Shown in pieces: positions 1-14,202 of a DNA stretch of 26,614 nucleotides; position 1 is the stretch's first letter; each line of letters starts with the position of its first letter. Location of the stretch: IMG/VR virus record IMGVR_UViG_2703719347_000005, positions 1 to 26,614 of that record; one strand, written 5' to 3'. The notes beneath the pieces were generated by a model. That model was given only the letters and a program-made list of their open reading frames with translations, ran no database searches and was not told the DNA's origin. The stretch is from a virus. Lineage: Duplodnaviria > Heunggongvirae > Uroviricota > Caudoviricetes. The position numbers were made by a program, and so were the translations under genes.

Positions 1-405
1 ATGGATCAGGTCGTTGTTTTTCAAAAGATGTTTGAGCAAGTGAGAAAAGAGCAAAACTTCTCCTGGTTTTATTCAGAATTAAAACATCACCGTATTGCAC
101 ATTACATTTATTATCTGGCTACGGATAACATCAGAATTATTACTCACGATGATACGGTTTTGTTATTAAGAGGAACCAGGAACCTGTTAAAAGTTAGTAC
201 GACCAAGAACCCTGCTAAAATAAAAGAGGCCGCATTGCTTCATATTTGCGGAAAATCTACATTTCGGGAATACTGTTCAACACTGGCAGGCGCGGGCGTT
301 TTCCGGTGGGTTACTGATGTTAATCATAACAAACGCAGTTACTACGCCATTGATAATACGCTTTTATATATTGAAGATGTAGAAAATAATAAACCATTAA
401 TCTAG
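1..405 (+). CDS. ycgX: Hypothetical 134-aa protein, YcgX-like (DUF1398-type) chromosomal flank gene
   Basis: Complete 405-nt ORF starting at window position 1 in AT-rich DNA. Its length, and its ~700-bp spacing from a 107-aa ORF and an icd 3' fragment, match the ycgX-iraM-icdC arrangement I recall for E. coli K-12. Identification is from memory, not a search. Confidence 0.45.
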   Translation: MDQVVVFQKMFEQVRKEQNFSWFYSELKHHRIAHYIYYLATDNIRIITHDDTVLLLRGTRNLLKVSTTKNPAKIKEAALLHICGKSTFREYCSTLAGAGVFRWVTDVNHNKRSYYAIDNTLLYIEDVENNKPLI

Positions 406-611
406 CTAAAGTTGGATACTTAAGAAATGCTTCATAATTCAGTAAGGCATTAGCATAATGGAAATAAAAGTGCAGAGACTATCTCTATGGATGATTAATA
501 CTGTCTTTTTATTGTCACCCATAAATAATCACCAGACTAATACTATCAACTTGATATTTGAAATGTGATCACTTGACTTTTGATACGTTATTTTATAACG
601 GTTAACATATT

Positions 612-662
612 TATAAAAACAACGGCCGTGCCACACGTCCGTTTCAATACTTAACGCACATG
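612..662 (-). repeat. Copy 1 of a ~50-bp hairpin-containing element; near-duplicate of the icd terminator region at 1478-1527
   Basis: Direct repeat of 1478-1527 at roughly 45 of 52 positions. Contains imperfect hairpin AACGGCCGTG/CACGTCCGTT followed on the minus strand by a T-rich run (revcomp of ttataaaaac). Confidence 0.5.
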
Positions 663-1019
663 TATTTTGGTTTAGTCATCATCCGGTTATATGTATTTTA
701 GCCAGGAACAGGTTAAATCATTCCTATATAACTCAAAAATTGAAACCTTATTCTCATGTCATGCTTATATTCATTATTATCGTTATATAAAAAGGCAACC
801 ATAATGTTTAGCAAATTGGCACAAAGTAGCATAAAGGCTATGTTTTAATTACAGGATGTTCAGTCATTTGAATGTATAACATTATAGCTAAACAAATCTA
901 AAACGAAGTCAATAATTTATTGCTTTCACAAAATCTCATTTTGTTTAACATCCATTGAGATTCCTTGCTTTAAATTTTATTTTATATAAGCCATCATTTT
1001 AATTAATTTATTTTTTTGA

Positions 1020-1029
1020 GGGGGGGGGG
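1020..1029. repeat. G10 homopolymeric tract upstream of the iraM-like ORF
   Basis: Ten consecutive G, preceded by T7 and followed immediately by TAATAT (1030-1035); ~80 bp upstream of the ATG at 1107. Confidence 0.9.
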
Positions 1030-1106
1030 TAATATACTCATATGCAAAATCAAGAAATAAACATCCTAATGAACCATATTAAATACCGTGGGATAAGACA
1101 TAACAA

Positions 1107-1430
1107 ATGAAGTGGATAGTAATTGACACGGTAATTCAACCTACATGTGGTATATCTTTTTCAGCCATATGGGGTAATATGAAAATGATCATCTGGTATC
1201 AATCTACTATATTTCTCCCTCCTGGCAGTATATTTACACCGGTTAAGTCTGGTATTATCCTTAAGGATAAAGAATATCCTATTACTATTTATCACATCGC
1301 ACCATTCAACAAGGATTTATGGAGTTTACTCAAAAGCAGTCAAGAGTGTCCTCCAGGAGAAAGCAAAATAACAAATAAATGTTTACATAATAGTTGCATT
1401 ATAAAAATATGCCCATATGGGCTCAAGTAA
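1107..1430 (+). CDS. iraM: Anti-adaptor protein IraM-like (107 aa)
   Basis: 107-aa ORF in AT-rich DNA ~100 bp from the icd fragment. Size and position match iraM (ycgW) next to icdC in E. coli K-12, and the N-terminus ([12 protein letters not shown]...) agrees with my recollection of IraM. Unverified by search. Confidence 0.55.
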
Positions 1431-1475
1431 TGGGCTTCATATAAATATGCTCGATATGCTATTAATAATATCCAC

Positions 1476-1527
1476 ATAAATAAAACAACGGGCGTGTTAT
1501 ACGCCCGTTTCAATATTTAACACATGG
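1476..1527 (-). terminator. Intrinsic terminator downstream of the icd 3' end (copy 2 of the repeated element)
   Basis: Perfect hairpin AACGGGCGT-gttat-ACGCCCGTT (1487-1509) followed on the minus strand by a GTTTTATTT run; lies just 3' of the icd stop codon (1533-1535). Confidence 0.6.
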
Positions 1528-1532
1528 AGAGA

Positions 1533-1692
1533 TTACATGTTTTCGATGATCGCTTCACCAAACTCTGAACATTTCAGCAGCTTAGCGCCTTCCATCAGAC
1601 GTTCGAAGTCATAAGTTACGGTCTTGGCATTGATTGCGCCTTCCATACCTTTAACAATCAGGTCAGCCGCTTCAGTCCAACCCATATGGCGC
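1533..1692 (-). pseudogene. icd: 3'-terminal fragment of the isocitrate dehydrogenase gene (icdC-like), prophage attachment-site duplication
   Basis: Minus-strand translation reads ...[53 protein letters not shown], matching the Icd C-terminus. Homology to icd stops abruptly near 1692, with an in-frame stop just upstream. Confidence 0.85.
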
Positions 1693-1995
1693 AGCAATAT
1701 CTACGCCATAAATTCTTAAGAGACTGATTTTATTATTTATTTAACCAATGCATCGAATTTTTATTGCCTTAAACTACATTGTTTAACTTGTTGATTTAGA
1801 TAATTTTAAGCTTCGTTTTGGGGAATAAATTATCGCCTTTGACCCAAAACCTATCGGCCATTACAACGTGGCGCCAGGGACTAAAGCTTTGCTCCTGAGC
1901 TAACGCGACGAGCAGTTGTACCTCGACCCGGTTCACTGGGTTACGCGCCAGGGTGGTGGGACAAACCGCCATTGATTAATGCGAAGTACTGATAA

Positions 1996-2029
1996 TATAA
2001 AAAATAAAAACCGGGATAGAGTATCCCGG
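1996..2029 (-). terminator. Rho-independent terminator of the 147-aa cargo ORF
   Basis: Hairpin CCGGGATA-gag-TATCCCGG (2011-2029), followed on the minus strand by T-tract TTTTTATTTTTT, 8 bp after the stop at 2037-2039. Confidence 0.6.
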
Positions 2030-2036
2030 CTCAAAG

Positions 2037-2480
2037 TTAGTGCACCGTAAGCTTTGATGGATTATCAGAGATGTCGAATGAAAACTCATCCCCATCTTTA
2101 TTGAAGCTGAAAGAATCAACATTATTTGTCTTAACGGACACTAAATCACCTAAAGGCCCATATACGCAAGTTGCCGTTCCACCGTTAGTAAACAACACTT
2201 CCTTGGTCACACCGGATACATTGGTAATTGTATTTACAGAAACCACGTTTGCTAAATTTTTTGGATAAGCATATTTGATTGACGAATAGTTGATGGTGAG
2301 CACGGTTCCACTATTGCTAATGGCAGCTCGATGGCCCCCATTCATCTCAGCCACCATACTCCCGTCTGGATAATAAGTCACTTTATGCCCATTTTGTTCA
2401 ATAACTTTTTTCCCGTCGGAATACTCAGTTACTGTATTAATACCCAACTGAAAAACTTTCGGTTGTTCATTATCTGCCAT
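2037..2480 (-). CDS. Hypothetical protein (147 aa), prophage cargo near the attachment site
   Basis: Uninterrupted ORF with its own terminator. No signal peptide or recognisable motif; Gly/Asn/Thr/Val-rich, beta-rich appearance. Confidence 0.5.
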   Translation of the reverse strand: MADNEQPKVFQLGINTVTEYSDGKKVIEQNGHKVTYYPDGSMVAEMNGGHRAAISNSGTVLTINYSSIKYAYPKNLANVVSVNTITNVSGVTKEVLFTNGGTATCVYGPLGDLVSVKTNNVDSFSFNKDGDEFSFDISDNPSKLTVH

Positions 2481-2666
2481 TTAATTCCCCTTTTTTTCTC
2501 CTGAAGAAACCCCATCAACCTTTACTTACTTTGTTAATATACACAAATATTTTTATAAATCCGCAGCCTAGATCAAATAAATGCTCATTGTTTTCAGCTG
2601 AGCCCTATCGAACTAATACAGAAATGAACTAAACGAATAAAATTTTTCTATTCTAGAAAATTGATA

Positions 2667-3932
2667 CTACTTAACCTGTAACAGGTCGGAGTATCTTGTA
2701 GTATAGCAAGGTGAAAGCATTTCCCGCTTCATCTGCCAGGCCGTTTGGATCCCCTGCCCTGCAAAATACAGCGTTCCCCTTCCGTCTTTCGCATTGAGAT
2801 GGTCGAGTACTTCCATCAGTTTCTCGCTATTCCGCCGTGGCACGTTATCATCAAACAAGTTTAGCTGGGCCACCCCCTGACTGTAGAAATCCCCCAGCAT
2901 CACTCCGGCTTTCTGGTAGCGATACCCGTCTCGCCAGATTGCATCGAGACATTCCGTCGCCGCTGTGATTATGTCCCGACTGTCCTGGGTCGGGGTCAAT
3001 AGTTTCACTGATGCACTATTGCCGTAGTACGGCTCATTCAGAGCAAATGGGCTGGTTTTGACGAATGCAGAGATAAAGCGGCAGTACTGATGCTCACCAC
3101 GGAGTTTCTCCGCGGCACGGGATGCGTATAAGCATATCGCCTGGCGCATCTCTTCGTAGGTGGAAATCCGCTGCCCAAAGCTGCGACTACAGACAATCTC
3201 CTGCTTTACCGGCGCGAACTCCTCAAGACCGAGACATGGCTCTCCGCGTAGCTCCCGCACGGTTCGCTCCAGTACCACATTAAAATGCTTCCGGATAAAA
3301 CGGATATCGGTATCCGCCAGTTGCAGTACAGTTTTAATCCCCATGGCCTCCAGTTTTTTACTGATGCGGCGCCCGACGCCCCAGACCTCATCCACCGGAA
3401 GCAAAGCCATCAACTTCCTCTGTCTTTCCAGGTTCGACAGATCCACCACGCCTCCGGTCTGCCGCTGCCACTGTTTCGCGGCGTGATTGGCCAGCTTCGC
3501 CAGGGTTTTAGTCTGGGCTATGCCGACGCCGACCGTTAGGTGTGTCCTGCGCAGAACCGTCTCGCGAATTTCCCTGCCAAAGTCGGTAAGGTCGCGACAA
3601 TTCCGAACTCCTGTCAGGTCGCAAAATGCCTCATCAATACTGTAAATTTCGCAGCGTGGAGAGAGTTCCTCCAGCGTTGTCATCACTCGGTTGGACATAT
3701 CGGCATAAAGCTCATAGTTGCTGCTAAACGCGATAATACCGTGCCGGCGAAACACGTCCTTTTGCTTGAAATAAGGCTCACCCATTTTGACGAAGGGCTT
3801 CGCTTCTGGCGAGCGGGCGATCACACAGCCGTCGTTGTTTGACAGAACGACCACCGGACGCCCTTTCAGGTCAGGACGAAATACGGTCTCGCACGATGCA
3901 TAAAATGAATTCACATCACAAAGCGCAAACAT
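2667..3932 (-). CDS. umuC: Translesion DNA polymerase V catalytic subunit UmuC (Y-family polymerase)
   Basis: Starts MFALCDVNSFYASCE with the SIDEAFCDLTG catalytic motif, ~421 aa. ATG is at 3930-3932, one nt after the umuD stop. The ORF-track 5' extension to 3992 is rejected. Confidence 0.9.
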   Translation of the reverse strand: MFALCDVNSFYASCETVFRPDLKGRPVVVLSNNDGCVIARSPEAKPFVKMGEPYFKQKDVFRRHGIIAFSSNYELYADMSNRVMTTLEELSPRCEIYSIDEAFCDLTGVRNCRDLTDFGREIRETVLRRTHLTVGVGIAQTKTLAKLANHAAKQWQRQTGGVVDLSNLERQRKLMALLPVDEVWGVGRRISKKLEAMGIKTVLQLADTDIRFIRKHFNVVLERTVRELRGEPCLGLEEFAPVKQEIVCSRSFGQRISTYEEMRQAICLYASRAAEKLRGEHQYCRFISAFVKTSPFALNEPYYGNSASVKLLTPTQDSRDIITAATECLDAIWRDGYRYQKAGVMLGDFYSQGVAQLNLFDDNVPRRNSEKLMEVLDHLNAKDGRGTLYFAGQGIQTAWQMKREMLSPCYTTRYSDLLQVK

Positions 3933-3933
3933 C

Positions 3934-4353
3934 TTAGCCAGCTGATTTAATGATGTACGTAACCACCCCGAACACGTCGAGAGTGTCCTCACTACCGACG
4001 ACTATTGGCGAATATGCAGGGTTCATTGGGTTAAGCTGAACCCGCGGATGCAGTTGCAGCTTCTTAACGGTGAATTCCCCATCCACAGCAGCAATAACGA
4101 TATCGCCATGAACTGCTGTTCTTGAGCTATCCACGACCAGAAGATCACCTTCCCCTATGCCTGCGTCTTTCATGCTGTCGCCGGCGGCTTTGACAAAATA
4201 CGTCGCACTTGGGTGGTTAACGAGCAACTCGTTCAGATCAATACGTTGCTCAACATAATCCTGCGCTGGACTAGGAAAGCCGCACTGCACAAGGTCACTG
4301 TACAACGGGAGCAGCATGATCTGGCGTAACTCAACGGGCGTGTAGAACTGCAT
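3934..4353 (-). CDS. umuD: UmuD, LexA-like self-cleaving accessory subunit of polymerase V
   Basis: 139 aa from ATG 4351-4353 ([13 protein letters not shown]...). Conserved Cys-Gly cleavage site (LVQCGFPSP), Ser (GDSMKD) and Lys (TVKKLQL) present. Confidence 0.9.
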
Positions 4354-4372
4354 AATAAACTCGCTCACAAAA

Positions 4373-4392
4373 TACTGTTTTTATATACAGTA
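4373..4392. promoter_or_regulatory. LexA (SOS) box upstream of umuD
   Basis: TACTGTTTTTATATACAGTA: canonical CTGT-N8-ACAG palindrome, 20 bp upstream of the umuD start codon. Confidence 0.8.
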
Positions 4393-4567
4393 GTTTTATT
4401 CGCTAATCTAATCAATAGAGGTTTTAACTATCAATCAGGAACACAGAGGGGGGGGAAACCAGTCACCTTTGAGCCCCTGATATTGGTTTCACTTAGTGAT
4501 TATGTTGTCTATATGCCAGCTTTGAACTATCTTTTCTCAAAACCTGCTACTGCAAAATGGATATAAG

Positions 4568-4693
4568 ATGTCACAGACGGACTTGCTGATTGTTGTTTTT
4601 ACGCTGGGCATTTTAGCCTTTGGCTATTCCATATGGTTCATTTCGAACAGAATACTCTGCTCAATATTTCATAGACTTACAAAGAATATATGA
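4568..4693 (+). CDS. Small hydrophobic ORF (41 aa; MSQTDLLIVVFTLGILAFGYSIWFISNRILCSIFHRLTKNI), putative small membrane protein
   Basis: ATG-initiated ORF below the ORF-track cutoff with one predicted transmembrane helix. Divergent from umuD and on the same strand as the terminator at 4900-4934. Weak RBS. Confidence 0.25.
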   Translation: MSQTDLLIVVFTLGILAFGYSIWFISNRILCSIFHRLTKNI

Positions 4694-4816
4694 ATTGGGA
4701 TGGTATAGACCAAAATTCATGGTCCTTGCTCCTCGACGTCGGAAGGTACTTACAGATCATCTTCGCTCTTAACCTATCACATCGGCACCTACTCCATGAT
4801 GTAACAGCTCAGACCA

Positions 4817-4934
4817 GAAATATCTGGAAGCTTTAGGCATCTTCTTGGAAGATAGACGAGCGCAAAGACGCACACAGCAATGATGTTATGTAGTATTTTC
4901 CCCTTGAGTGTGCCTGCTCAAGGGGATTTTTTAT
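4817..4934 (+). repeat. Direct repeat copy 1 (~118 bp), homologous to 7965-8079, ending in an intrinsic terminator
   Basis: Shared GAAATATCTGGAA, a 22-bp identical core GCGCAAAGACGCACACAGCAAT (4860-4881 and 8008-8029), and a terminator hairpin with conserved loop. Confidence 0.6.
4900..4934 (+). terminator. Rho-independent terminator (plus strand) overlapping the 3' end of the invertase gene
   Basis: CCCCTTGAG-tgtgcctg-CTCAAGGGG followed by ATTTTTTAT. The minus-strand version has no U-tract, so it is not the invertase terminator. Confidence 0.6.
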
Positions 4935-5487
4935 CGCCGCATTGTACCGGCAAATTTTTGTAAATAGTCTTCACATCTACGCCTATCACATCTGCGATCT
5001 GTTGCCGAGTAGCGCCGTTCTCCAGCATTCTGCGGCACCGCTCCACCACTTCTTCAGTCATTACCCGGCGGCGGCCGCCGACTCTCCCCTGCTCCCTCGC
5101 TGCGGCTAACCCGGCTCGGGTACGCTCCACTATCAGCTCGCGCTCCATTTCTGCCAGGGCGCTCATGACGTGGAAGAAGAATCGCCCTGCTGGCGTCGAA
5201 GTGTCGATCGAGTCGGTAAGGCTGCGGAAATTCACCCCACGCGCCTGCAACTCTGACACGAGCGTAATCAGATCGCGCACGCTGCGGCCCAGCCGATCCA
5301 GTTTCCAGACCACCAGCACATCACCCGGGCGGAGCCGTCGCAGCGCTCGCTTCAAACCTGGCCGCCGGGCATTCTTCCCGCTGGCCATATCCTCGAAAAC
5401 CAGCTCACATTCTGCGCGGATCAGCGCGTTTTTCTGTAAATCGAGGTTTTGATCCCCGGTTGATACCCTCGCATAGCCAATCAGCAC
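4918..5487 (-). CDS. Serine DNA invertase, Gin/Hin/Pin/Cin family
   Basis: MLIGYARVSTGDQNLDLQ...VVWKLDRLGRS...FRSLTDSIDTSTPAGRFFFHVMSALAEMERELIVERT closely matches Gin/Pin over the catalytic domain. GTG start at 5485-5487 with SD AAGGAG 7 nt upstream. C-terminal ~45 aa diverge from what I recall of Gin/Pin. Confidence 0.9.
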   Translation of the reverse strand: MLIGYARVSTGDQNLDLQKNALIRAECELVFEDMASGKNARRPGLKRALRRLRPGDVLVVWKLDRLGRSVRDLITLVSELQARGVNFRSLTDSIDTSTPAGRFFFHVMSALAEMERELIVERTRAGLAAAREQGRVGGRRRVMTEEVVERCRRMLENGATRQQIADVIGVDVKTIYKNLPVQCGDKKSP

Positions 5488-5510
5488 GATCTAACTCCTT
5501 GAAATAGCTG

Positions 5511-5539
5511 ATTGTAAAAAGCCGCGGCCATTCGCTCAA
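5511..5539 (-). promoter_or_regulatory. Putative sigma70 promoter of the invertase gene, -35 overlapping crossover site L
   Basis: On the minus strand: -35 TTGAGC (5539-5534), 17-bp spacer, -10 TACAAT (5516-5511). The -35 hexamer lies inside the left half of the 26-bp site. Confidence 0.3.
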
Positions 5540-5556
5540 ACCCTCGTTTGGGCGAA
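5531..5556. other. gix/hix-like 26-bp recombination site L
   Basis: TTCGCTCAAACC-CT-CGTTTGGGCGAA: two 12-bp half-sites (TTC....AAACC) around a 2-bp core, as in gix/hix/cix. Exact reverse complement occurs at 11080-11105. Confidence 0.65.
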
Positions 5557-5923
5557 GCCTCTTTTTGGAGCAAAAAACATGGCCGAACTTAACCCGCCAC
5601 TGGGCACGACGACGCCGGAAATATTCATGGACAACGTTAAGCGCGCTGACGAGCTGGTTAACGGTCCGGCCGGAACGGTTGACGACCGCGGCGGTGAACC
5701 ACTCGATACCTGGCGCCAGATGATGGCGAAAAACGATGAGGTCAGGCAGAACCTGATCCCGCTCAGTAAGCAATACCAGACGCTGGCAGCGGCGCAGGCG
5801 GATATCGCGAATATTCCGGTGGGGTCGACCACGTATTACCGTAGCCCGGATGACAACGCGTTAGCTGTAGAAGTGATCAATAACGCCGGTACGCTGCAGC
5901 CTACCGGGCGGAAAATGCCATCT
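5531..5923. repeat. Left arm of ~390-bp inverted repeat (site + RBS + first ~115 codons of fibre A)
   Basis: First 48 bp are 100% identical to revcomp of 11058-11105; the next ~345 nt are roughly 85-90% identical by eye to the fibre B 5' end. Confidence 0.85.
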
Positions 5924-7918
5924 TATTCTTCGCTACGCGGGGCGAACATTCTGTTTGATGCTCTGAATGAATATTCAGCAAATGATCCTAAATTCGGTGC
6001 GTGGGACTGGTATCGCGGAGCAGTGATCACCTTCAGCACTACTGATGCCAATATTTCGTTACCGACTCCAGTGGCACAGTATTCCGGCGTATGGTCTGCA
6101 GATAAATATTATGACCTTGCCCGCCTGCCTGTAAGGGTTGGTGATAAGTTAACCTTTTCCGTGCTGGCGTGGTTCCAGGATGCCGGTGCTATGTTCCATA
6201 TTTTCTGGATGTCCACCGCTGGCGCTGTTATTTCGTCTAAATCACAGCTTGCTCTGGCCGCAGGTATAAATACGCCGGTTATCACAGATGTCATTCCATC
6301 CGGCGCATCCTACGTCAGGATCCGGGTTGAAAATACTACGGCAGGGATATTTAAGGTCGGTGCTTATGCTGCTGCGTTGGGGGCTATTCAGCCTGATTTT
6401 GTTCGCGCCACGCCGGATAAAACTTATCTGTCAGCCGTCATATCATCCGGTATTTCGGGGTTAACATCACGCGTCGATGCGCTCCAGGGAGCTATCTCTG
6501 TTGGTTATGCTTATGCAGCTGCCTGGCAAGTCGGGAAATTTATCAACCCAACTACAGGGGCCATCACTGATAACTCTGCGCTGAACTGCGCAATCATTCC
6601 GCATTCCGACGGGGATGGCTGGCTGGTGACAGCCCTTGTGACAGGATCGGCGACTGCTCTGGCCGTGTACATGAACAGCGCCGGGATGGTATTGGGTGTT
6701 GAAGGGCGGGGAACGGCAACCCCGCAGCAGTATACTAATTATCGTCTTAACGTTCCTGCCGGGACAACACAGATCGGTATAACGGGTCGTAATTCTGCGG
6801 AAATTGCTGTTAAAAAACTTGCTGTCGTTGAGACGGCCAAAGTACTGGCATCGATCGATTCTCTGGATGTCAGGGTACAAACAATAGAGGACTCTCTTGT
6901 TTATGATTTTATTAAACACGACGTCACGATTACCTCAGGAGCATATATAAACCGTGCTGATGGCAGTGTGGTGGCAAATGCTGCATTTGACTGTGCAATT
7001 TTTAATTACACAGCAGGAGACCGCTGGAAAGTCACAGCGAGGGTTAACGGCAGTGGAGTTTCGCTCGCGGTGTATATGAACAGTGCCGGGACGGTTATCG
7101 GCACCGAAGGGAACGGTACTACAGAATCGGTGGACTACACCGATTACGAGCTAACACCTCCTTCCGGCACCGCCAAAATCGGGATCACCACCCGTATAGC
7201 CGTCCCCATTATTGCCAAAAAATATGTAGTCGTTCCCGGTGGTAGCACGGTCAGTCCGTGGTCTGGAAAAGTCATCGATGTGATGGGTGACAGCAACGTT
7301 GCTTATAACAAATGGCAACCTCTTGTCGCGGCAGAACTGGGCTGCACTTTTCTGAATCACGGGGTCGGTGGTTCGAAAATAGCCAAACCGGATAGCTCCT
7401 CAACGCAAATCAGCATGTGCGACGATGTGCGAATCAATGCTCTGGATACATCGGCGGCGGCGTGGATTTGCGGTCCGTGGGCAACAAACGACTGGGCGCA
7501 AAATATTCCGATTGGAAGTATCACCGACTCAGTGAATACAACCGTTTACGGCGCGCTGAACATCATCGCTCAGAAACTGCGGGCGCGGGCCCCAACAAAA
7601 CCTATCCTGTGGGCCACGCCGTTCAATGGGGACTATGATTCTCCACGTTCAGCGGCATGGGTTGACGGTGAAACAAATGGCTATGGGCGGGTTTCTGACT
7701 ATGCAGCGGCCATACGCGCCGTGGCGTTGCGATATGGATTCCCCCTAATAGACCTTAACGCTGACTGTGGCTGGACAAAATTCAATAGCACTAGTTTTTT
7801 ATTAACCGAGGGGGATACAAATCCGTCCCGCATCCACCTCAATGCGGACGCGGGGCCTGTGCGTATTTCCTCACTGATAACCGATCGGCTTACTGCCCTA
7901 CAGAAACTGGTGGGCTAG
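5579..7918 (+). CDS. Alternative tail fibre A (779 aa): shared N-terminal anchor, three repeated ~100-aa modules, C-terminal GDSL/SGNH-like esterase domain
   Basis: N-terminus MAELNPPLGTTTPEIF... shared with fibre B for ~115 aa. C-terminal region carries MGDSNVA, HGVGGSK, WATNDW and a late His (SRIH), reading like SGNH hydrolase blocks. Currently antiparallel to the tail operon. Confidence 0.7.
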   Translation: MAELNPPLGTTTPEIFMDNVKRADELVNGPAGTVDDRGGEPLDTWRQMMAKNDEVRQNLIPLSKQYQTLAAAQADIANIPVGSTTYYRSPDDNALAVEVINNAGTLQPTGRKMPSYSSLRGANILFDALNEYSANDPKFGAWDWYRGAVITFSTTDANISLPTPVAQYSGVWSADKYYDLARLPVRVGDKLTFSVLAWFQDAGAMFHIFWMSTAGAVISSKSQLALAAGINTPVITDVIPSGASYVRIRVENTTAGIFKVGAYAAALGAIQPDFVRATPDKTYLSAVISSGISGLTSRVDALQGAISVGYAYAAAWQVGKFINPTTGAITDNSALNCAIIPHSDGDGWLVTALVTGSATALAVYMNSAGMVLGVEGRGTATPQQYTNYRLNVPAGTTQIGITGRNSAEIAVKKLAVVETAKVLASIDSLDVRVQTIEDSLVYDFIKHDVTITSGAYINRADGSVVANAAFDCAIFNYTAGDRWKVTARVNGSGVSLAVYMNSAGTVIGTEGNGTTESVDYTDYELTPPSGTAKIGITTRIAVPIIAKKYVVVPGGSTVSPWSGKVIDVMGDSNVAYNKWQPLVAAELGCTFLNHGVGGSKIAKPDSSSTQISMCDDVRINALDTSAAAWICGPWATNDWAQNIPIGSITDSVNTTVYGALNIIAQKLRARAPTKPILWATPFNGDYDSPRSAAWVDGETNGYGRVSDYAAAIRAVALRYGFPLIDLNADCGWTKFNSTSFLLTEGDTNPSRIHLNADAGPVRISSLITDRLTALQKLVG

Positions 7919-7964
7919 TTAACAGTGCTTATCGCGTAGTAGTGTTTCTAAAATGCTGTAATAA

Positions 7965-8079
7965 GAAATATCTGGAAATGTTTTGAATTATCCAGGAGTA
8001 TATCAACGCGCAAAGACGCACACAGCAATAATGTCATTCATCGCTTTTCCCCCGGCGTGCCTCCGGGGGGATTTTTTAG
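7965..8079 (+). repeat. Direct repeat copy 2 (homolog of 4817-4934) downstream of fibre A
   Basis: See copy 1. Stem sequence differs from copy 1 with compensatory changes (CCCCTTGAG/CTCAAGGGG versus CCCCCGG/CCGGGGG) while the loop (GTGCCT) is conserved. Confidence 0.6.
8049..8079 (+). terminator. Rho-independent terminator downstream of fibre A
   Basis: CCCCCGG-cgtgcct-CCGGGGGG followed by ATTTTTTAG on the plus strand. Confidence 0.6.
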
Positions 8080-8173
8080 TCCTTTATGACGTCGTCTTGT
8101 CCCGTCCTCAGGGAAGCTATAGTGGTCTTATTTCACGTGGTAACTGAAACTGAATACAGTACGAGTCAGCTTA

Positions 8174-8890
8174 TTACGCGATTGATAAAATCCCTTCATA
8201 GCTCTGAGTGACGAGGTCAACCATATCCATTTTTTCAGCCTGAGAGAGTATTCCGCCCGCCCACACCCCTGTCATTGCAATATCCACAGCGCCTAAAAAA
8301 TCTGACGTGATATAGGAGTAGCCAGCATAAATCGACTTATTCGGAACAGGGATTGCGCGGGCGGTAACAGCGACCTGTTCAGTCGATAACAGCTCACTGT
8401 TCGTCATTTTATGAAGCTGAACCATAGAGTTATTCACATCGAGGAAAACCAGATGGAATTTACTGGTGTCCAGTGGAGTCGCGAGGGTGGCGGTTGCTGT
8501 CCCGCTTGACCGCCCCACAATCCCCCTGATTTGAGGAATGGCCGGTTCAAAAACAAACGTATCCCCCTGCGGTTGTACAGCAGAGCCGAGATAGTTACCC
8601 ATGCCCAGCGCTCTGGTAGTGCTTTTAGGCCGGAGTAACACCATCATGGTTTTAACCGGGTTATCCGTGACTTTCAGATCATAACCCCCCGCACCAACAC
8701 CACCCGTAAACCAGTACGTGTTGATGACAGGTGCCCCCACTATGGTTGGCTCTTCCCCAAAAATAGCCCCAAAGTTCTGGCTGCCAAATGTGGCAATGCT
8801 CGCGATAGACGGCTGCGGATAACTCGAACCAATAATACAGTCATCATCCCAGACGGCATCAACATTAATAGATAATCCCTGATTAGACAT
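8174..8890 (-). CDS. Hypothetical protein (238 aa) co-transcribed downstream of fibre B; possible fibre accessory or assembly protein
   Basis: Start ATG 8888-8890 (MSNQGLSINVD...), 7 nt after the fibre B stop, with GAGG SD overlapping that stop. The ORF-track 5' extension to 8989 overlaps fibre B and is rejected. No family recognised. Confidence 0.5.
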   Translation of the reverse strand: MSNQGLSINVDAVWDDDCIIGSSYPQPSIASIATFGSQNFGAIFGEEPTIVGAPVINTYWFTGGVGAGGYDLKVTDNPVKTMMVLLRPKSTTRALGMGNYLGSAVQPQGDTFVFEPAIPQIRGIVGRSSGTATATLATPLDTSKFHLVFLDVNNSMVQLHKMTNSELLSTEQVAVTARAIPVPNKSIYAGYSYITSDFLGAVDIAMTGVWAGGILSQAEKMDMVDLVTQSYEGILSIA

Positions 8891-8897
8891 AAGTACC

Positions 8898-11057
8898 TCA
8901 CAACGTGATTTCAAACATGACGCAATAGTTATCCATACGGATAACCTCGCTATTAAGGGTAAAACTGATAATGTCGCCCTGGCTGTCACGCAGACAACCG
9001 CGCGGCCCGGTCAGGCGACCCGGTGACTGGCCGGTGGTGCCGCCGTGAAAGGCATACTGAAGAATGGCCCCGGCAGGGATATCCGCTGCCGTTGAGACAG
9101 TCACCGCGTCATAACGGATATTGAGGCTGGTCAGCGGGATAATCGCACGTGTGTCAGGGTGCAGTAGCCGGAAACCATAATTACCCGGATCAGAAACAAT
9201 GCTGGTATCAAAGCTCAGCCGACCCACCGGATTCAGCCACACCGTAGCGGCGCGGCCCTGGCGTTGATGACTAACTGGCATCAGTGGTTTTGCCGCTTTG
9301 CCGTCAACCAGCGCCCGCTTTTCCATCACGGAAATATAAAGCCCCTGAATATAGGAACTTCTGGCGGTGAGGTGTGCGCCATCCGTGTAATCGTGAATGT
9401 ACATCGGGTTCGTGAGATAGACATTTTCGCGTGTCTGCGCCAGCTCCAGCAGCGCCATCGGAATGGTGGGATAGGCTGTGTTCGGCGTCCGGTTTATCCA
9501 GCTGCTGAACTGATAAACAAAAATCGGCACATGGACTTCTTCGCCGCACACAGCTGAGGCGTGGGCATCGATCCGCTGTTGCATGGTGTCGAAAATAGCC
9601 TGATAGTCTGCTTTGGTGGTGCCTTTCGTCTGGTCTGCTTCGCCCTGCATCCAGTACATCGCCACAGGCCGGTAGGTTTTCCCGAGCTCCTGAGCGCGGG
9701 CGTAACCATAACTGATATCATCGAAAACTCGCTGAATGTACTTTCCGGGATACGCCGCCAGCACATCAATGGGTTGACCGCCCTCCGCCGGAACAGAACC
9801 CAGAATGATCAGATCATCCGGGTTAAAGCCATAGTTCTCGGCAATCATCAGTTCGTACCAGCCGCGAATGCTGGCCCCCATTGGGGTTTCCCATGCCTGG
9901 CCGTTATCGGTGTTTTTATACGTCTCGACGTAGGGAACCAGCTGAGCATGGTTTTCTGCCGAAGTGCCGGAGCCATCCTGCGCCCGTGCCCCACCGATAA
10001 AACGCAATGCGGTATACAGCGCGGCTATCGTAATCAGGGCCTGAGTATTCACGCCAGCGGCAAGCGATTGTCCGTAACCGATTTTATGGGCAATATCCGG
10101 CAGGCGTGAGTAAATGGACTGATTAAAATAGCGCAGAAATTCAGGGGAAATAATCGCTTTAACTTCCAGAGTTTCGGCTTTCAGCGATTTTACCTCTCCA
10201 TGATTCGCTTCAATTTTCCCCGCAGCAAATGCCCCGTTTTTTTTGATACCCACAGCCGGACGATTTAACGTATCACGCCACGCCATAACGAAATCGCGGA
10301 ATGTCGCAGTAGAAATGCTGGCGTTGGCTGGTAACCCTAAGATACTGGCAATCGTAAGATTGTTGATCTCAGCCTTCCCTGATTTCAGTACCCCTTTTTT
10401 ATTAATGGCAAAACAAAGCCGTTTAAGGGTGTCATAAACTGAAACAGCGTTACCGTCAGCCACTAATGATAAAGCAGAATTCCCGATATTCAGACGTGAT
10501 GACGAGATGATCGACGAAATAAATTCATCCGCTGAGAGCTTTTTTAATTCTGCTTTATTCGCCTTAATCCACCCGGCAAGCAACCGGCCCGCCTCATCCA
10601 GCCCTACCGAATAATTTTTTCGTTCATCCATAAAGGCAAGAGACATACCCGCTGGCGCATTCTGGCTGAACGTTGCTCTGATCAAATCAGTCATGATATT
10701 GACCAGCTCCTGAGATGGCATTTTCCGCCCGGTAGGTTGCAGCGTCCCGCCGTTATTCATGTACTCGTCCGCCAGCGCCCAGACGTCCTGGCTGCGAACA
10801 TAGGTCGTGGAGCCAACGGGGATATTCGCGATATCTGCCTGCGCTGCCGCCTCATTCATATACTGCTTGCTGAGTGGGATCAGGTTCTGCCTGACCTCAT
10901 CGTTTTTCGCCATCATCTGGCGCCAGGTATCGAGCGGTTCACCTGCGCGGTCGTTAATCGTTCCGGCCGGACCGTTCACCAGTTCGTCAGCGCGCTTGAC
11001 GTTATCCAGGAATATTTCAGGCGTCGTCGTTCCCAAAGGCGGGTTAAGTTCGGCCAT
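8898..11057 (-). CDS. Alternative tail fibre B (719 aa): shared N-terminal anchor, SASA-like acetylesterase domain, extra C-terminal domain
   Basis: N-terminal ~115 aa shared with fibre A. Residues ~325-585 carry YGQSLAAG, WMQGEAD and DGAHL, consistent with SASA/DUF303-type SGNH esterases. Colinear with the tail operon, so this is the presumably expressed fibre. Confidence 0.7.
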   Translation of the reverse strand: MAELNPPLGTTTPEIFLDNVKRADELVNGPAGTINDRAGEPLDTWRQMMAKNDEVRQNLIPLSKQYMNEAAAQADIANIPVGSTTYVRSQDVWALADEYMNNGGTLQPTGRKMPSQELVNIMTDLIRATFSQNAPAGMSLAFMDERKNYSVGLDEAGRLLAGWIKANKAELKKLSADEFISSIISSSRLNIGNSALSLVADGNAVSVYDTLKRLCFAINKKGVLKSGKAEINNLTIASILGLPANASISTATFRDFVMAWRDTLNRPAVGIKKNGAFAAGKIEANHGEVKSLKAETLEVKAIISPEFLRYFNQSIYSRLPDIAHKIGYGQSLAAGVNTQALITIAALYTALRFIGGARAQDGSGTSAENHAQLVPYVETYKNTDNGQAWETPMGASIRGWYELMIAENYGFNPDDLIILGSVPAEGGQPIDVLAAYPGKYIQRVFDDISYGYARAQELGKTYRPVAMYWMQGEADQTKGTTKADYQAIFDTMQQRIDAHASAVCGEEVHVPIFVYQFSSWINRTPNTAYPTIPMALLELAQTRENVYLTNPMYIHDYTDGAHLTARSSYIQGLYISVMEKRALVDGKAAKPLMPVSHQRQGRAATVWLNPVGRLSFDTSIVSDPGNYGFRLLHPDTRAIIPLTSLNIRYDAVTVSTAADIPAGAILQYAFHGGTTGQSPGRLTGPRGCLRDSQGDIISFTLNSEVIRMDNYCVMFEITL

Positions 11058-11105
11058 GTTTTTTGCTCCAAAAAGAGGCTTCGCCCAAACGAGGGTTTGA
11101 GCGAA
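10713..11105. repeat. Right arm of ~390-bp inverted repeat (fibre B 5' end + RBS + site R)
   Basis: Reverse complement matches 5531-5923; outermost 48 bp are identical. Confidence 0.85.
11080..11105. other. gix/hix-like 26-bp recombination site R (inverted relative to site L)
   Basis: TTCGCCCAAACG-AG-GGTTTGAGCGAA on the plus strand, the exact reverse complement of site L. Confidence 0.65.
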
Positions 11106-11133: not shown

Positions 11134-14100
11134 TTAAGCAGCGTCGCCGGGGTATGTGGCGTCGTCGTACTGGTAGAACGATTCGAGGTATTCTTTTGCG
11201 GTGACCTGGCAGGTTCCGTCAGACTGCGGGGCGATCTCCTCTACAATGGCGTCGTAGACGTGGCGCGTTGAGCCGCAGAACACCAGGCGGATCGGCTCGA
11301 TGGTTGCCGACGACAGGTCAACCCGCATGGGATCATCAAACTCGCTCAGGTGCGGGACTGACAGCTGAAAATCACCCACCCGGCTCGCCACCATCAGCCC
11401 GGATGCAGAGCCATCCTGATAGCGGATTAGCGCGCGGGGATTTTCGAAAGACCAGTCCAGCGGCTCCGTAACGGTGAACGTTGTCACGCCACCAGCCGTT
11501 GTCATCGCCTCCACCAGACAGGAAATTGTGTTGTTACCCGGAATATCATCCGTGAGCACAATGCGATCGCCCGTGTTGTAGCACAGCGCGTCCAGCTCGG
11601 TAGTGGTCTGGAACGTCACCCGCTGCTGCAGGTATTTCATCAGGCGACGCATGCCGATCTGGTAGGCGTGATCCTGATTCAGTACCCCATCGAGTTTGTA
11701 GTTCTCGATTTTCACCGGCGTGGGATTATCAGGCGTCCGGCATTTAACGGTCTCCTCCGCCCAGGTAGTCCCGTTGATGTATGTCACGTCGACGCCATCA
11801 AAATCATCGTCGGACGGTACGGTAAATCCGCTCTGCAGCTCCTCCACCATCTCATGCGGAGTGATCACGCCAGTCCAGGGCTTAATCCCCTCACGGTTGA
11901 CCGTCGCCAGGCCATCACTCAGCAGAAAACGTGACTTCCCGGCATTGGCTATCTTCTGCAGCATTTCCAGCGCTGAGATACTGTCGCCCGTGGCGAAATC
12001 AAAATTTTCGCCCCGTGGCGTCCAGTACGCGGATTCCAGCGCGTTGATGGTGTCGACGTCCATCTCCAGCCCCAGCGAGTTCCCGACATGCAGCAGCGCC
12101 CCCGAAATGGTTCTGGCGGTTCCTGAGTCGTAGGCCCGCGTGGCCACAACGTTTACGCGGCGGTCCGACTGCGCCGCCAGCTTCCCACCCGTCTCAACGG
12201 TCACCGCCATCAGCGACACGCCGGGATAGGATGAAGGGCGCGTCAGCAGTCGCCCGCGCAGTGCCTGCCAGTACATCGAATCCCTGGCGTTGTTTGAGCC
12301 CTGCTCATTGCGCCGACGGCAGCGAACCTCTACCAGTCCCGGAGAACTGAGGGTGATCCGCTCAGTGAAACCTAACCCGTTGACGTTTTTCAGCGCATAC
12401 TCGCCCTGGTGACTCACCCACCCCGATCCGGAACCGTAGACGCGATACTGTATCTCCCACTCAACGTGGCGGATCCGTTTTTTGCCCTTACTGTCAAAGC
12501 CGCAAATACCGTTCGGGAAAGAGAAATTCACCTCGAACATATCGACGGTCTCATTTTCAGGGCAAACCAGGAACGGCCCCAGCCAGCTCAGCGTGTCGTT
12601 AAGACCAGTGGCCTCATAGTCGATCATCGTCCGGGCGGTGAATCCCGGCCATGACTCATCAACGGCACCGTTAACCAGGCGCGCCACCGTCGCCGTTGTG
12701 CCGTCGGTCGAGACAATGCGGTACTCATTCCCGCGGTGAGCAAGTGAAAGCCGTTGCACCCCCTCCGGCATGCCGGAAAAGGCCGTTCCCGTGGCGCTGT
12801 TATAGGCAAGCGTCACATTCGCCGTTACCGCCGGGCTGCCGCCGGTTGATGCCGTGCCGGAGGTGTAAACCGGGGCATCACCGAAAACAGCTGCAGGCAG
12901 CGAAGAGGACGTGATCTCCCCACCCGCGAACGGACTGGCCGACTCGGTTATCAGTACGGTGCCGCCGTTGTCCTGCGCAACCAGGCCGGCGCCAGTGAGT
13001 CCCTCGGTGATGGCCGCCAGCAGTCCCGACATCGAGACGTAGTTAGCCACCAGCGACACCGGGTAGGTAACTCCCTGCCAGGTGATCGTGAACGTGCTGG
13101 AGCTGGTCGAAAAATCGTAGGTGGTCGGGGCCGCACTGGCCTGGACTTTTGCCACACTCCCCCCGGTGCCGGGCACTGCAGCCTGACCGGGGGTATATGA
13201 CGCGATAAACAGATCGTAATCGACAGAGTTAAACCCCAGCGTCACCGGCATTCCAACCACCGGCGCGATCTCCGTCAGCAGCGGGCTTGCGATAACGCTG
13301 TATCCGGCCGCCGTGGTGATCTGGTAGTTCGCCTGGGCTTTCAGTTCGACCACGGCGCCAGCGACCCAGCTGGGCGGCAGTGAGTTATCGTTCTCGTCAT
13401 TATCGTCATCATCATCCGTATCCAGCCCGGTAAACGTTACGCTCGAACCGGATACGGTCATGCTGTCTGCGATAATATCGTCGGCATCCGGCGACGTCTG
13501 GGCCATATCCAGCCCGGTACCGGATGATGTCCCTCCGACCTCAGTACTATTGACCCAGTTTTCACTGCGCTCATCGCCGGAAACGTCCGCGCCTGGTGGA
13601 AAATAGGTGATGTTGAAACCCGGCAGCGTTGAAGCTGGCGTACTGCCTACCCTGATATCGCCAGTGGTATAAATCAGTTCACCGACACCGAGACACAGCA
13701 GCATCTGGACGCGCATTTTCGTAGGATCGGCGGCATCGAACCGGGTAACGGGCTGGACCACATAATCCGGGTAGATACGCACCCGGCCAAACACCTCACG
13801 AATGGCATCACCGAGTTTTGCGGTGTTGGCCCGCGCCGGGTTCAGGTCGAGACTCCGCCCTGTGGATGAGGTATAGCCGCCCGTATCGATGCGGCTCATC
13901 AAAACAAGCGAATAGGCTGCAGCGGCAACGGAGATACCGACGCCGATCCACGCGATTGTGGCGGCCTCCAGCCCGAAGGGGACCGGATAAAGCCGTACAT
14001 CACTATCAGGGCGGATCACACAGGTAGCCCACTCGCCTGGCGGAATTGACTGACCCTCAACCTCAACGGTCAGCGGTGGGACATCCCGATCGGTATAGTT

Positions 14101-14202
14101 TTCAACATTTTCCACCAGCCAGGTGCGGATACTGGTTACACCATGCTCATGCGTTTCGAGTGGTTCACCGGGAAGCCGGGACGGGTAGAAACGAATGGTC
14201 AT
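11134..14202 (-). CDS. Tail tip / central fibre host-specificity protein (1022 aa), possibly a fused I/J-like protein
   Basis: Large protein directly downstream of the NlpC/P60 gene with a 4-nt ATGA overlap. N-terminal ~100 aa include a hydrophobic stretch (AATIAWIGVGISVAAAAYSLVLM), reminiscent of lambda gpI. Confidence 0.55.
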   Translation of the reverse strand: MTIRFYPSRLPGEPLETHEHGVTSIRTWLVENVENYTDRDVPPLTVEVEGQSIPPGEWATCVIRPDSDVRLYPVPFGLEAATIAWIGVGISVAAAAYSLVLMSRIDTGGYTSSTGRSLDLNPARANTAKLGDAIREVFGRVRIYPDYVVQPVTRFDAADPTKMRVQMLLCLGVGELIYTTGDIRVGSTPASTLPGFNITYFPPGADVSGDERSENWVNSTEVGGTSSGTGLDMAQTSPDADDIIADSMTVSGSSVTFTGLDTDDDDDNDENDNSLPPSWVAGAVVELKAQANYQITTAAGYSVIASPLLTEIAPVVGMPVTLGFNSVDYDLFIASYTPGQAAVPGTGGSVAKVQASAAPTTYDFSTSSSTFTITWQGVTYPVSLVANYVSMSGLLAAITEGLTGAGLVAQDNGGTVLITESASPFAGGEITSSSLPAAVFGDAPVYTSGTASTGGSPAVTANVTLAYNSATGTAFSGMPEGVQRLSLAHRGNEYRIVSTDGTTATVARLVNGAVDESWPGFTARTMIDYEATGLNDTLSWLGPFLVCPENETVDMFEVNFSFPNGICGFDSKGKKRIRHVEWEIQYRVYGSGSGWVSHQGEYALKNVNGLGFTERITLSSPGLVEVRCRRRNEQGSNNARDSMYWQALRGRLLTRPSSYPGVSLMAVTVETGGKLAAQSDRRVNVVATRAYDSGTARTISGALLHVGNSLGLEMDVDTINALESAYWTPRGENFDFATGDSISALEMLQKIANAGKSRFLLSDGLATVNREGIKPWTGVITPHEMVEELQSGFTVPSDDDFDGVDVTYINGTTWAEETVKCRTPDNPTPVKIENYKLDGVLNQDHAYQIGMRRLMKYLQQRVTFQTTTELDALCYNTGDRIVLTDDIPGNNTISCLVEAMTTAGGVTTFTVTEPLDWSFENPRALIRYQDGSASGLMVASRVGDFQLSVPHLSEFDDPMRVDLSSATIEPIRLVFCGSTRHVYDAIVEEIAPQSDGTCQVTAKEYLESFYQYDDATYPGDAA

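Follow-up and report, generated by a model that had tools for sequence, protein, structure and literature searches.

The anti-sRNAs AgvB and AsxR of EHEC lambdoid prophages are 51–60 nt long, with a conserved 3' part of about 42 nt and a variable 5' seed that mimics a GcvB or FnrS target, and are encoded at the moron site after PR' (PMC4104026). They are the nearest phage RNAs to the element described here, a non-coding repeat of about 115 nt that occurs twice near the tail-fibre genes of a prophage. Like AgvB and AsxR, the element is phage-borne, short and non-coding, ends in a Rho-independent terminator, occupies conserved convergent positions, and combines a conserved part with a variable part. 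Unlike them, it is invariant at its centre and variable in its 5' part and its terminator, is about 115 nt long, and follows tail-fibre cassettes. The pattern of conservation is therefore reversed, and with no sequence similarity between the two and with pairing to GcvB that lies within the composition background, membership of the AgvB/AsxR class was rejected.

In the way that it would work, the module is most like the 3'-UTR-derived Hfq sRNAs of enterobacteria, such as CpxQ, SroC, DapZ and DinR. It resembles these in lying directly after a co-oriented ORF whose terminator it would use, and in having a U-rich stretch, a hairpin, a U tail and a conserved internal segment as a possible seed. 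It differs from them in that it is carried by phages, follows unrelated genes, is present or absent as a unit, and is described here from sequence alone.

The terminators of Gin, Cin and Pin segments are also similar, being located at the convergence point of fibre cassettes or at the invertase-side end of the segment, and consisting of a hairpin and a T-run. In those sister segments the hairpin is short (30–100 nt) and often bidirectional, whereas the module is unidirectional and has a payload of 90 nt. Finally, the lambda sib/tI retroregulation element and the C. difficile cwpV switch terminators are 3' RNA elements whose effect on a recombinase or a neighbouring gene, as might be the case here, depends on the arrangement of the DNA. 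This likeness is an analogy only.

The two copies and their genomic setting

The window analysed here is the whole stretch of 26,614 nt of viral DNA, which forms the right arm of a siphovirus-type prophage. The features that are relevant to the repeat are as follows.

2667–3992, − strand: umuC-like gene
3934–4368, − strand: umuD-like gene
4568–4693, + strand: hydrophobic small ORF of 41 aa, co-oriented and upstream of copy A
4816–4934, + strand: copy A, winA type, payload and terminator (covariance-model score 153.7 bits)
4816–4899, + strand: copy A payload, from family alignments: 5' leader and hairpin region, core, and A/U-rich linker ending in UUUU
4860–4881, + strand: copy A invariant core GCGCAAAGACGCACACAGCAAT, at least 90% conserved across 23 clusters of <90% identity
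4900–4932, + strand: copy A intrinsic terminator, 9-bp stem, 8-nt loop and T6, from folds, terminator scan and covariation
4918–5487, − strand: serine invertase with Resolvase and HTH_7 domains, convergent with copy A
5531–5556: left invertase crossover site TTCGCTCAAACCCTCGTTTGGGCGAA, a 26-bp dyad
5579–7918, + strand: SGNH/GDSL tail-fibre cassette of 779 aa, silent in the orientation of the window
7964–8079, + strand: copy B, winB type, within the invertible segment (covariance-model score 118.8 bits)
8008–8029, + strand: copy B invariant core, the 22-mer GCGCAAAGACGCACACAGCAAT, identical to the copy A core
8049–8077, + strand: copy B intrinsic terminator, 7-bp stem (9 with flanking pairs), 7-nt loop and T6
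8174–8890, − strand: accessory gene of the 719-aa fibre cassette, convergent with copy B
8898–11057, − strand: tail fibre of 719 aa, the expressed cassette
11080–11105: right crossover site, inverted, at the outer end of a 393-nt inverted repeat
11134–14202, − strand: TipJ

An earlier note on this DNA had described two + strand segments, at 4817–4934 and 7965–8079, which share AGAAATATCTGGAA and an identical 22-nt core. This description holds, except that the true bounds of each copy are one base wider, so that AGAAATATCTGGAA opens both copies (4816–4829 in copy A and 7964–7977 in copy B). The first 74 nt of the copies align without gaps at 74% identity, and over the full element 77 of 117 aligned columns are identical. 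No direct repeat in the first 12 kb of the window is longer than this pair, and a 21-nt core pattern for which 0.01 occurrences would be expected by chance has two in the window.

The region from 5531 to 11105 is a complete Pin-type invertible tail-fibre segment, bounded by a 393-nt inverted repeat (5531–5923 and 10713–11105) with arms that are 85% identical. The crossover dyads lie upstream of the start codons, and whole fibre genes are therefore exchanged, namely the 779-aa GDSL fibre for the 719-aa fibre with its accessory gene. In ten complete E. coli genomes this prophage is present at the icd/e14 site and its segment is in the opposite orientation, and the 100% match to E. coli genomes breaks exactly at 5531, the left crossover site. 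It follows that copy B is inside the invertible segment and flips, and that copy A is outside it and fixed. The two copies of L124 are found one on each strand. The repeat is not itself an additional crossover site for the invertase, because it does not contain the dyad TTC....AAACC NN GGTTT....GAA that is found at 5531–5556 and 11080–11105.

Copy B starts 46 nt after the stop codon of the GDSL fibre. Copy A is 122 nt downstream of the 41-aa ORF, and the stop codon of the convergent invertase gene (4918–4920) falls within the 3' arm of the copy A hairpin. Elements of the winA type have the umuD promoter region on one side and the invertase 3' end on the other, and dozens of phages retain this placement against the invertase. 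In the window, the umuD promoter with its LexA box and the intact 41-aa ORF occupy the 447 nt upstream of copy A, and the same arrangement recurs at >92% identity in about 30 other phage loci. The ORF (MSQTDLLIVVFTLGILAFGYSIWFISNRILCSIFHRLTKNI), between the LexA box and copy A, is intact in the roughly 30 homologous loci. Its only database match is weak and sub-threshold, to the Ecr family (E = 0.023), and its product may be an SOS-linked small membrane protein. The LexA-box-like palindrome, TACTGTTTTTATATACAGTA, is at 4373–4392, just upstream of the umuD-like gene, and the umuDC-like genes form a moron at the right end of the phage.

These surroundings bear on the origin of copy A. The earlier note suggested that it may be a terminator cassette left behind by a fibre gene that once stood next to the invertase. 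The same module does follow fibre cassettes elsewhere, and the two copies, 3.1 kb apart, flank the invertase and one fibre cassette. However, what stands upstream of copy A is the umuD promoter region and a conserved region with the small ORF, and nothing resembling a relic of fibre coding sequence was seen there. The junction with the invertase 3' end is itself shared by dozens of phages. An ancestral relic is therefore not supported, being the least probable of the origins and roles considered here, and copy A is better described, from these comparisons, as a standing feature of its phage group that abuts the 3' end of the invertase gene.

In many relatives (for example L073 at 1756–2486, L046 and L006) there is an insertion of about 535 bp between the element and the invertase. 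It holds an ORF of 140 aa, is bordered by a 47-nt stretch of the invertase 3' end that has been duplicated, and is located at the equivalent of window positions 4949–4995. The insertion is absent from the window and from L027, L105 and L062.

Distribution and modular structure of the element family

Judged by its matches, the A/B repeat is a member of a dispersed family and not a local duplication. In BLAST searches against phage genomes, either copy matches other phages across the element only: Proteus phage Mydo matches at 77% over exactly 4816–4935, and Klebsiella phage Kpn_R1 at 83% over exactly 7960–8077. A search of IMG/VR with the core pattern found at least 119 contigs, and a covariance model built from 51 variants gave 106 matches on these core-pattern loci. 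The model finds the element in about 140 phage loci, and the sequences, of which 68 are distinct, fall into 23 clusters of <90% identity. The proposal of a conserved 3' module, which the earlier note had based on the two copies in the window, is thus borne out. A sample of 78 loci was gathered by means of the conserved fibre N-terminus alone, which removes ascertainment by the element itself, and 39 of the 78 contain at least one copy.

The hosts named for the matches are Klebsiella, Raoultella and a few E. coli, and there is one Proteus phage. Klebsiella is the host for all 14 matches in the plasmid database and for most of the phage matches; the species-representative genomes gave four matches only, all in Raoultella; and copy B is present in 13 of 5426 E. 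coli genomes. The family is therefore narrow and mostly from Klebsiella, and some of the conservation described below may reflect recent spread.

Searches of the whole window against Rfam 15 gave no matches at the gathering threshold, and at permissive E-values (up to 10) gave just sub-threshold noise driven by the terminator. Full-text literature searches with the core and leader strings found no relevant paper, and the Klebsiella RIL-seq paper has nothing on the element. We take it to be an uncatalogued non-coding 3' module of phages and a candidate small RNA, with a putative regulatory function.

The element is generally about 20–120 nt after a co-oriented gene, which is usually the receptor-binding fibre cassette of a Pin-type segment. 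In at least 12 independent contexts it begins 19–59 nt after the co-oriented stop codon, and the gene concerned encodes a fibre, a GDSL fibre, or an accessory protein of about 249 aa (phrog_4390). A convergent pair of accessory and fibre genes faces the element, the convergent stop codon being at the T-run. Three loci (L012, L092 and L120) have the element with no close co-oriented gene upstream.

Comparison between loci indicates that the module is made up of two separable parts, a payload of about 90 nt and an exchangeable terminator. In L130 and L131 the fibre 3' flank, the hairpin CCCCCGGTGTGCCTCCGGGGG, the T-run and the downstream gene are all shared with L160 and L104, but the payload of about 96 nt that lies between flank and hairpin in the latter pair is absent. 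The payload ends have no inverted repeats and at most 1–2 nt of junction homology, as seen by inspection against L130 and L131, and a MITE-like element was rejected on these grounds. The 5' types reassort with the terminator types T1, T2, T3 and T4, in combinations that require recombination inside the element. For example, the 5' half of L204 is of the winA type and its 3' half of the winB type, and the terminators of L012 and L120 differ although their 5' half is shared.

In the sample ascertained by the fibre N-terminus, most invertible segments have at the convergence point only a spacer of 30–100 nt with a simple and often bidirectional hairpin. Since most sister segments terminate with this plain hairpin spacer, the payload of about 90 nt is not necessary for termination, which suggests that it has a function of its own.

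That function could also be exerted at the level of DNA, because an invariant stretch of 26–30 bp with reassorting flanks also fits a recombination patch. The element would then be a plain terminator with a patch of homology and no RNA role beyond termination, and the core would serve as, or be homogenised by, the joint at which receptor-binding cassettes are swapped, between the conserved fibre N-terminus and the 3' flank of the element. We consider this, the main rival to a small-RNA role, possible but doubtful. The repeated reassortment of 5' halves and terminators noted above is in its favour, as is the scarcity of covariation outside the terminator (described below), and the invariant core has about the minimal length of homology for RecA or phage recombinases.

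Mydo, a virulent phage with no invertase, provides evidence on both sides. Here the element closes a receptor-binding cassette that is missing from its Klebsiella Mydovirus relatives (L001 1–3346), and homology to the relatives resumes at the L-shaped tail-fibre gene. The cassette has a match at its start to the tail fibre of Klebsiella phage PIN1, suggesting a cassette swap between temperate and virulent phages. That a swapped cassette ends in the element favours a homology patch, but the junction between cassette and backbone is about 225 nt beyond the element and not within it. Furthermore, half of the sister segments exchange cassettes without the element, and a homology patch needs no one strict sequence, fixed 5' boundary or fixed internal spacing. 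The near-invariant U tract and the G·U pairs on the + strand also point to RNA instead. Should the element prove to be only a terminator and a homology patch, it would still document a conserved 3' joint for the exchange of fibre cassettes.

Terminator and payload: conservation and folding

The terminator hairpin of copy A is formed by CCCCTTGAG (4900–4908) and CTCAAGGGG (4917–4925) around the loop TGTGCCTG, followed by A and TTTTTT (4927–4932). That of copy B is formed by CCCCCGG (8049–8055) and CCGGGGG (8063–8069) around the loop CGTGCCT, followed by GA and TTTTTT (8072–8077). In a scan of the region for + strand terminators these two hairpins rank top, and, with 11 and 9 pairs respectively, they are present in both the MFE and the centroid folds and dominate the predicted structures. 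Both copies thus have the G+C-rich stem-loop followed by a T run on the transcribed strand that identifies an intrinsic terminator, with differing stems, in agreement with the earlier note. The loops, which had been called conserved, have GTGCCT in common and are related rather than identical. The T-run is confined to the + strand, and the scan showed no terminator on the − strand at copy B.

Across the family, 98.7% of cells in the terminator stem are paired, and four of its seven pairs have two-sided changes (for example UA/CG/GC at columns 98:115). The compensatory changes that were proposed from the two copies are therefore real, and are found among homologues as they should be for an intrinsic terminator. 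They do not argue for a special RNA, because any terminator would be expected to covary in this way. A pseudoknot or kissing interaction between the terminator loop and the core (GUGUGC with GCACAC, or UCUUUGC with GCAAAGA in T3) was rejected, as it is not above that of shuffled loops (p = 0.04–0.84 depending on type).

One group of relatives shows an unusual change in the terminator loop. Between L031/L223 and L220/L224 the loop is exactly reverse-complemented (GAG AUAAAACA CUC against GAG UGUUUUAU CUC) in otherwise near-identical copies, which amounts to an inversion of the loop within the hairpin.

The limits of the element are sharp. Homology begins abruptly at AGAAA, regardless of the sequence upstream, and stops at the T-run. 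Within these limits the columns GCGCAAAGACGCACACAGCAAURAUGU are at least 90% conserved across the 23 clusters. Other conserved blocks are the leader AGAAAYAUCUGGAA, UUUUC, GAAnAU and the U stretch before the hairpin, where UUUU is nearly invariant (alignment columns 87–89). The variable parts are a stretch of 10–12 nt in the 5' part and the terminator itself. When the 5' part alone was used for retrieval, each of the 17 loci obtained had the core, with no more than one substitution, and the conservation of the core is therefore not an artefact of the search pattern. Divergent members (L166 and L199) also keep the core despite a very different 5' part. In a sister lineage (L031b, L220, L223 and L224) a different sequence replaces the core, and a small hairpin, RAUGUCAU and a terminator are retained. 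A small peptide encoded in the element was rejected by inspection, since indels in the hairpin put the two copies out of frame with each other.

RNAalifold, run on 20 diverse members, predicts a 5' hairpin in which CUGGAAR pairs with YUUC-U-URG, corresponding in the window to 4824–4830 with 4841–4848 and to 7972–7978 with 7989–7996. It also predicts a 3-bp hairpin in the core. The 5' hairpin contains 19 G·U cells when read on the + strand, and in one lineage its changes are compensatory. Other ways of pairing the 5' part reach about 88% paired cells, with changes that are one-sided. When all columns were compared with all others, the two-clade phylogeny dominated the covariation. The earlier note had looked to covariance analysis of homologues for support, and this is robust for the terminator alone; elsewhere the covariation is weak, being mostly one-sided or following lineages. 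Both the T-run and the G·U pairs, in the terminator as in the 5' hairpin, point to an RNA from the + strand. In the small core hairpin, substitutions keep the pairing slightly better on the − strand, as judged from wobble pairs, which is not decisive. In some variants (L002 and L118) the core can be fully paired.

The 5' part could in principle be read as DNA instead. The element would then be an autonomous sRNA gene, its 5' part being a promoter composed of an A-rich upstream block, TGGAAA, a variable spacer of exactly 17 bp and GARNAT, with transcription starting at the core to give an sRNA of about 72 nt with a 5' seed. The payload would be a promoter-plus-seed cassette placed before a pre-existing terminator, in keeping with its presence/absence polymorphism. 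The 17-bp spacing between TGGAAA and GAnnAT is held, A2 and T6 of the second block are invariant, indels occur only between the GAnnAT block and the core, and the sequence TTGAAA-15-TAGAAT of Mydo scores 11 bits. The loci L012, L092 and L120, where there is no close co-oriented gene upstream, would also be explained. We nevertheless think this unlikely. In a sigma-70 position-weight scan the in-register promoter scores 4.3 bits, below the median best score of shuffled sequences (5.9), and a consensus scan did not report it. Relatives of the L031b type do not have T at the last position of the −10-like hexamer. The 5' part also forms a conserved hairpin, with its + strand G·U pairs and one compensatory lineage, which implies that it is transcribed.

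Proposed function and relation to the inversion switch

We favour the explanation, at about an even chance, that the element is a 3'-UTR module of payload and terminator that probably yields an Hfq-type small regulatory RNA. Each repeat would be a discrete 3'-end module of phage genes, mobile by recombination, with a payload made up in order of the 5' leader hairpin, the small core-bearing hairpin, and the A/U-rich linker ending in the U stretch. The module would be transcribed as the end of the upstream co-oriented gene, which is the receptor-binding fibre cassette for copy B and the 41-aa membrane-protein gene for copy A. The terminator would end this unit and insulate the convergent gene, and the prediction is that the 3' end of about 115 nt, whole or trimmed by RNases, would remain as an sRNA-like RNA, with the invariant core as its putative working part, acting in trans as a base-pairing seed or as a protein site. 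The element has the U-rich stretch, the hairpin and the U tail of at least 5–6 that are characteristic of an Hfq-type 3' module. The small-RNA role raised by the earlier note is plausible.

A search of the window for sequences that could pair strongly with the core gave one candidate, the antisense of the other copy. With a panel of 14 E. coli sRNAs no pairing was significant after multiple testing: the GcvB duplex has a z of about −1.8 to −1.9, with 3.7% of shuffles as good, and SgrS in the same panel has a z of about −1.9. The duplex between the sense RNA of one copy and the antisense of the other has a predicted energy of −42.5 kcal/mol, with more than 20 contiguous pairs.

This duplex raises the question of a role in the inversion switch. 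The element might be an antisense or insulator device that links the choice of fibre to expression of the invertase. Termination of the late operon at copy B would require the GDSL cassette to be ON; in the orientation of the window, late transcripts would run antisense through copy B towards the invertase, and the sense RNA of one copy would pair with the antisense of the other, which is located in the 3' end of the invertase mRNA. Several observations agree with this, in addition to the duplex itself: copy B flips relative to copy A in the 10 E. coli genomes with the same prophage, the invertase stop codon is inside the copy A hairpin, no − strand terminator is seen at copy B, and two-copy loci recur in both relative orientations (L017, L102, L054, L046/L048, L027/L119 and L033/L075). 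On the other hand, most phages with an invertase-side copy have no second copy in the sequence examined, the second copy of L031 has a different core, and the element is present in a virulent phage with no invertase. Such a device, though attractive for this phage, is very unlikely.

A more specific version, which we regard as highly improbable, is an inversion-coupled pair of sense and antisense RNAs, by which the module would sense which fibre is ON and adjust the expression of the invertase, and hence the rate of switching. In one orientation the late operon would end in the sense RNA of copy B, whose 26-nt core would be perfectly complementary to the copy A antisense at the 3' end of the invertase mRNA; in the other, late transcription would proceed antisense through copy B into the invertase gene. 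If true, a DNA inversion switch would here be under feedback control by RNA.

To return to the preferred explanation of a 3'-UTR module with an Hfq-type RNA, if the RNA is real it would represent an uncatalogued family of phage sRNAs tied to the receptor-binding cassettes of Klebsiella phages. Host range is determined by the receptor-binding region, which is a current target of engineering for phage therapy. Because the payload is gained or lost precisely before an existing terminator, and the two halves reassort, this portable unit of payload and terminator would illustrate clearly how regulatory RNAs are acquired and shuffled by phages. The module also marks the boundaries of cassettes, which makes it useful for annotation and for the design of fibre swaps.

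The repeat was also considered as the TR/VR pair of a diversity-generating retroelement (DGR), and rejected. The 40 differences between copies A and B are spread over all bases and are not adenine-specific, both copies are non-coding, and there is no reverse transcriptase among the ORFs of the window or in the RefSeq annotation. Separately, Escherichia phage vB_EcoS-733R5 (L003) has an annotated retron-type reverse transcriptase at 4282–5766, near an element of the winA type and adjoining fragmented remnants of an invertase and a large tail gene. This locus may be a DGR or a retron; it has no equivalent in the window.

At the other end of the region, the identical E. coli prophage in RefSeq (L124 17600–20770, corresponding to window 1–2600) is annotated with an icd fragment, iraM, ymgK/ymgL, ycgX and bluR, and many of the E. 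coli prophage protein accessions are also shared with Klebsiella. There is a second direct repeat here, at 616–658 and 1482–1524, downstream of the prophage end and near iraM. Its copies are 43 nt long and 84% identical, and contain a hairpin, AACGGGCGT...ACGCCCGTT, followed by a T-rich stretch.
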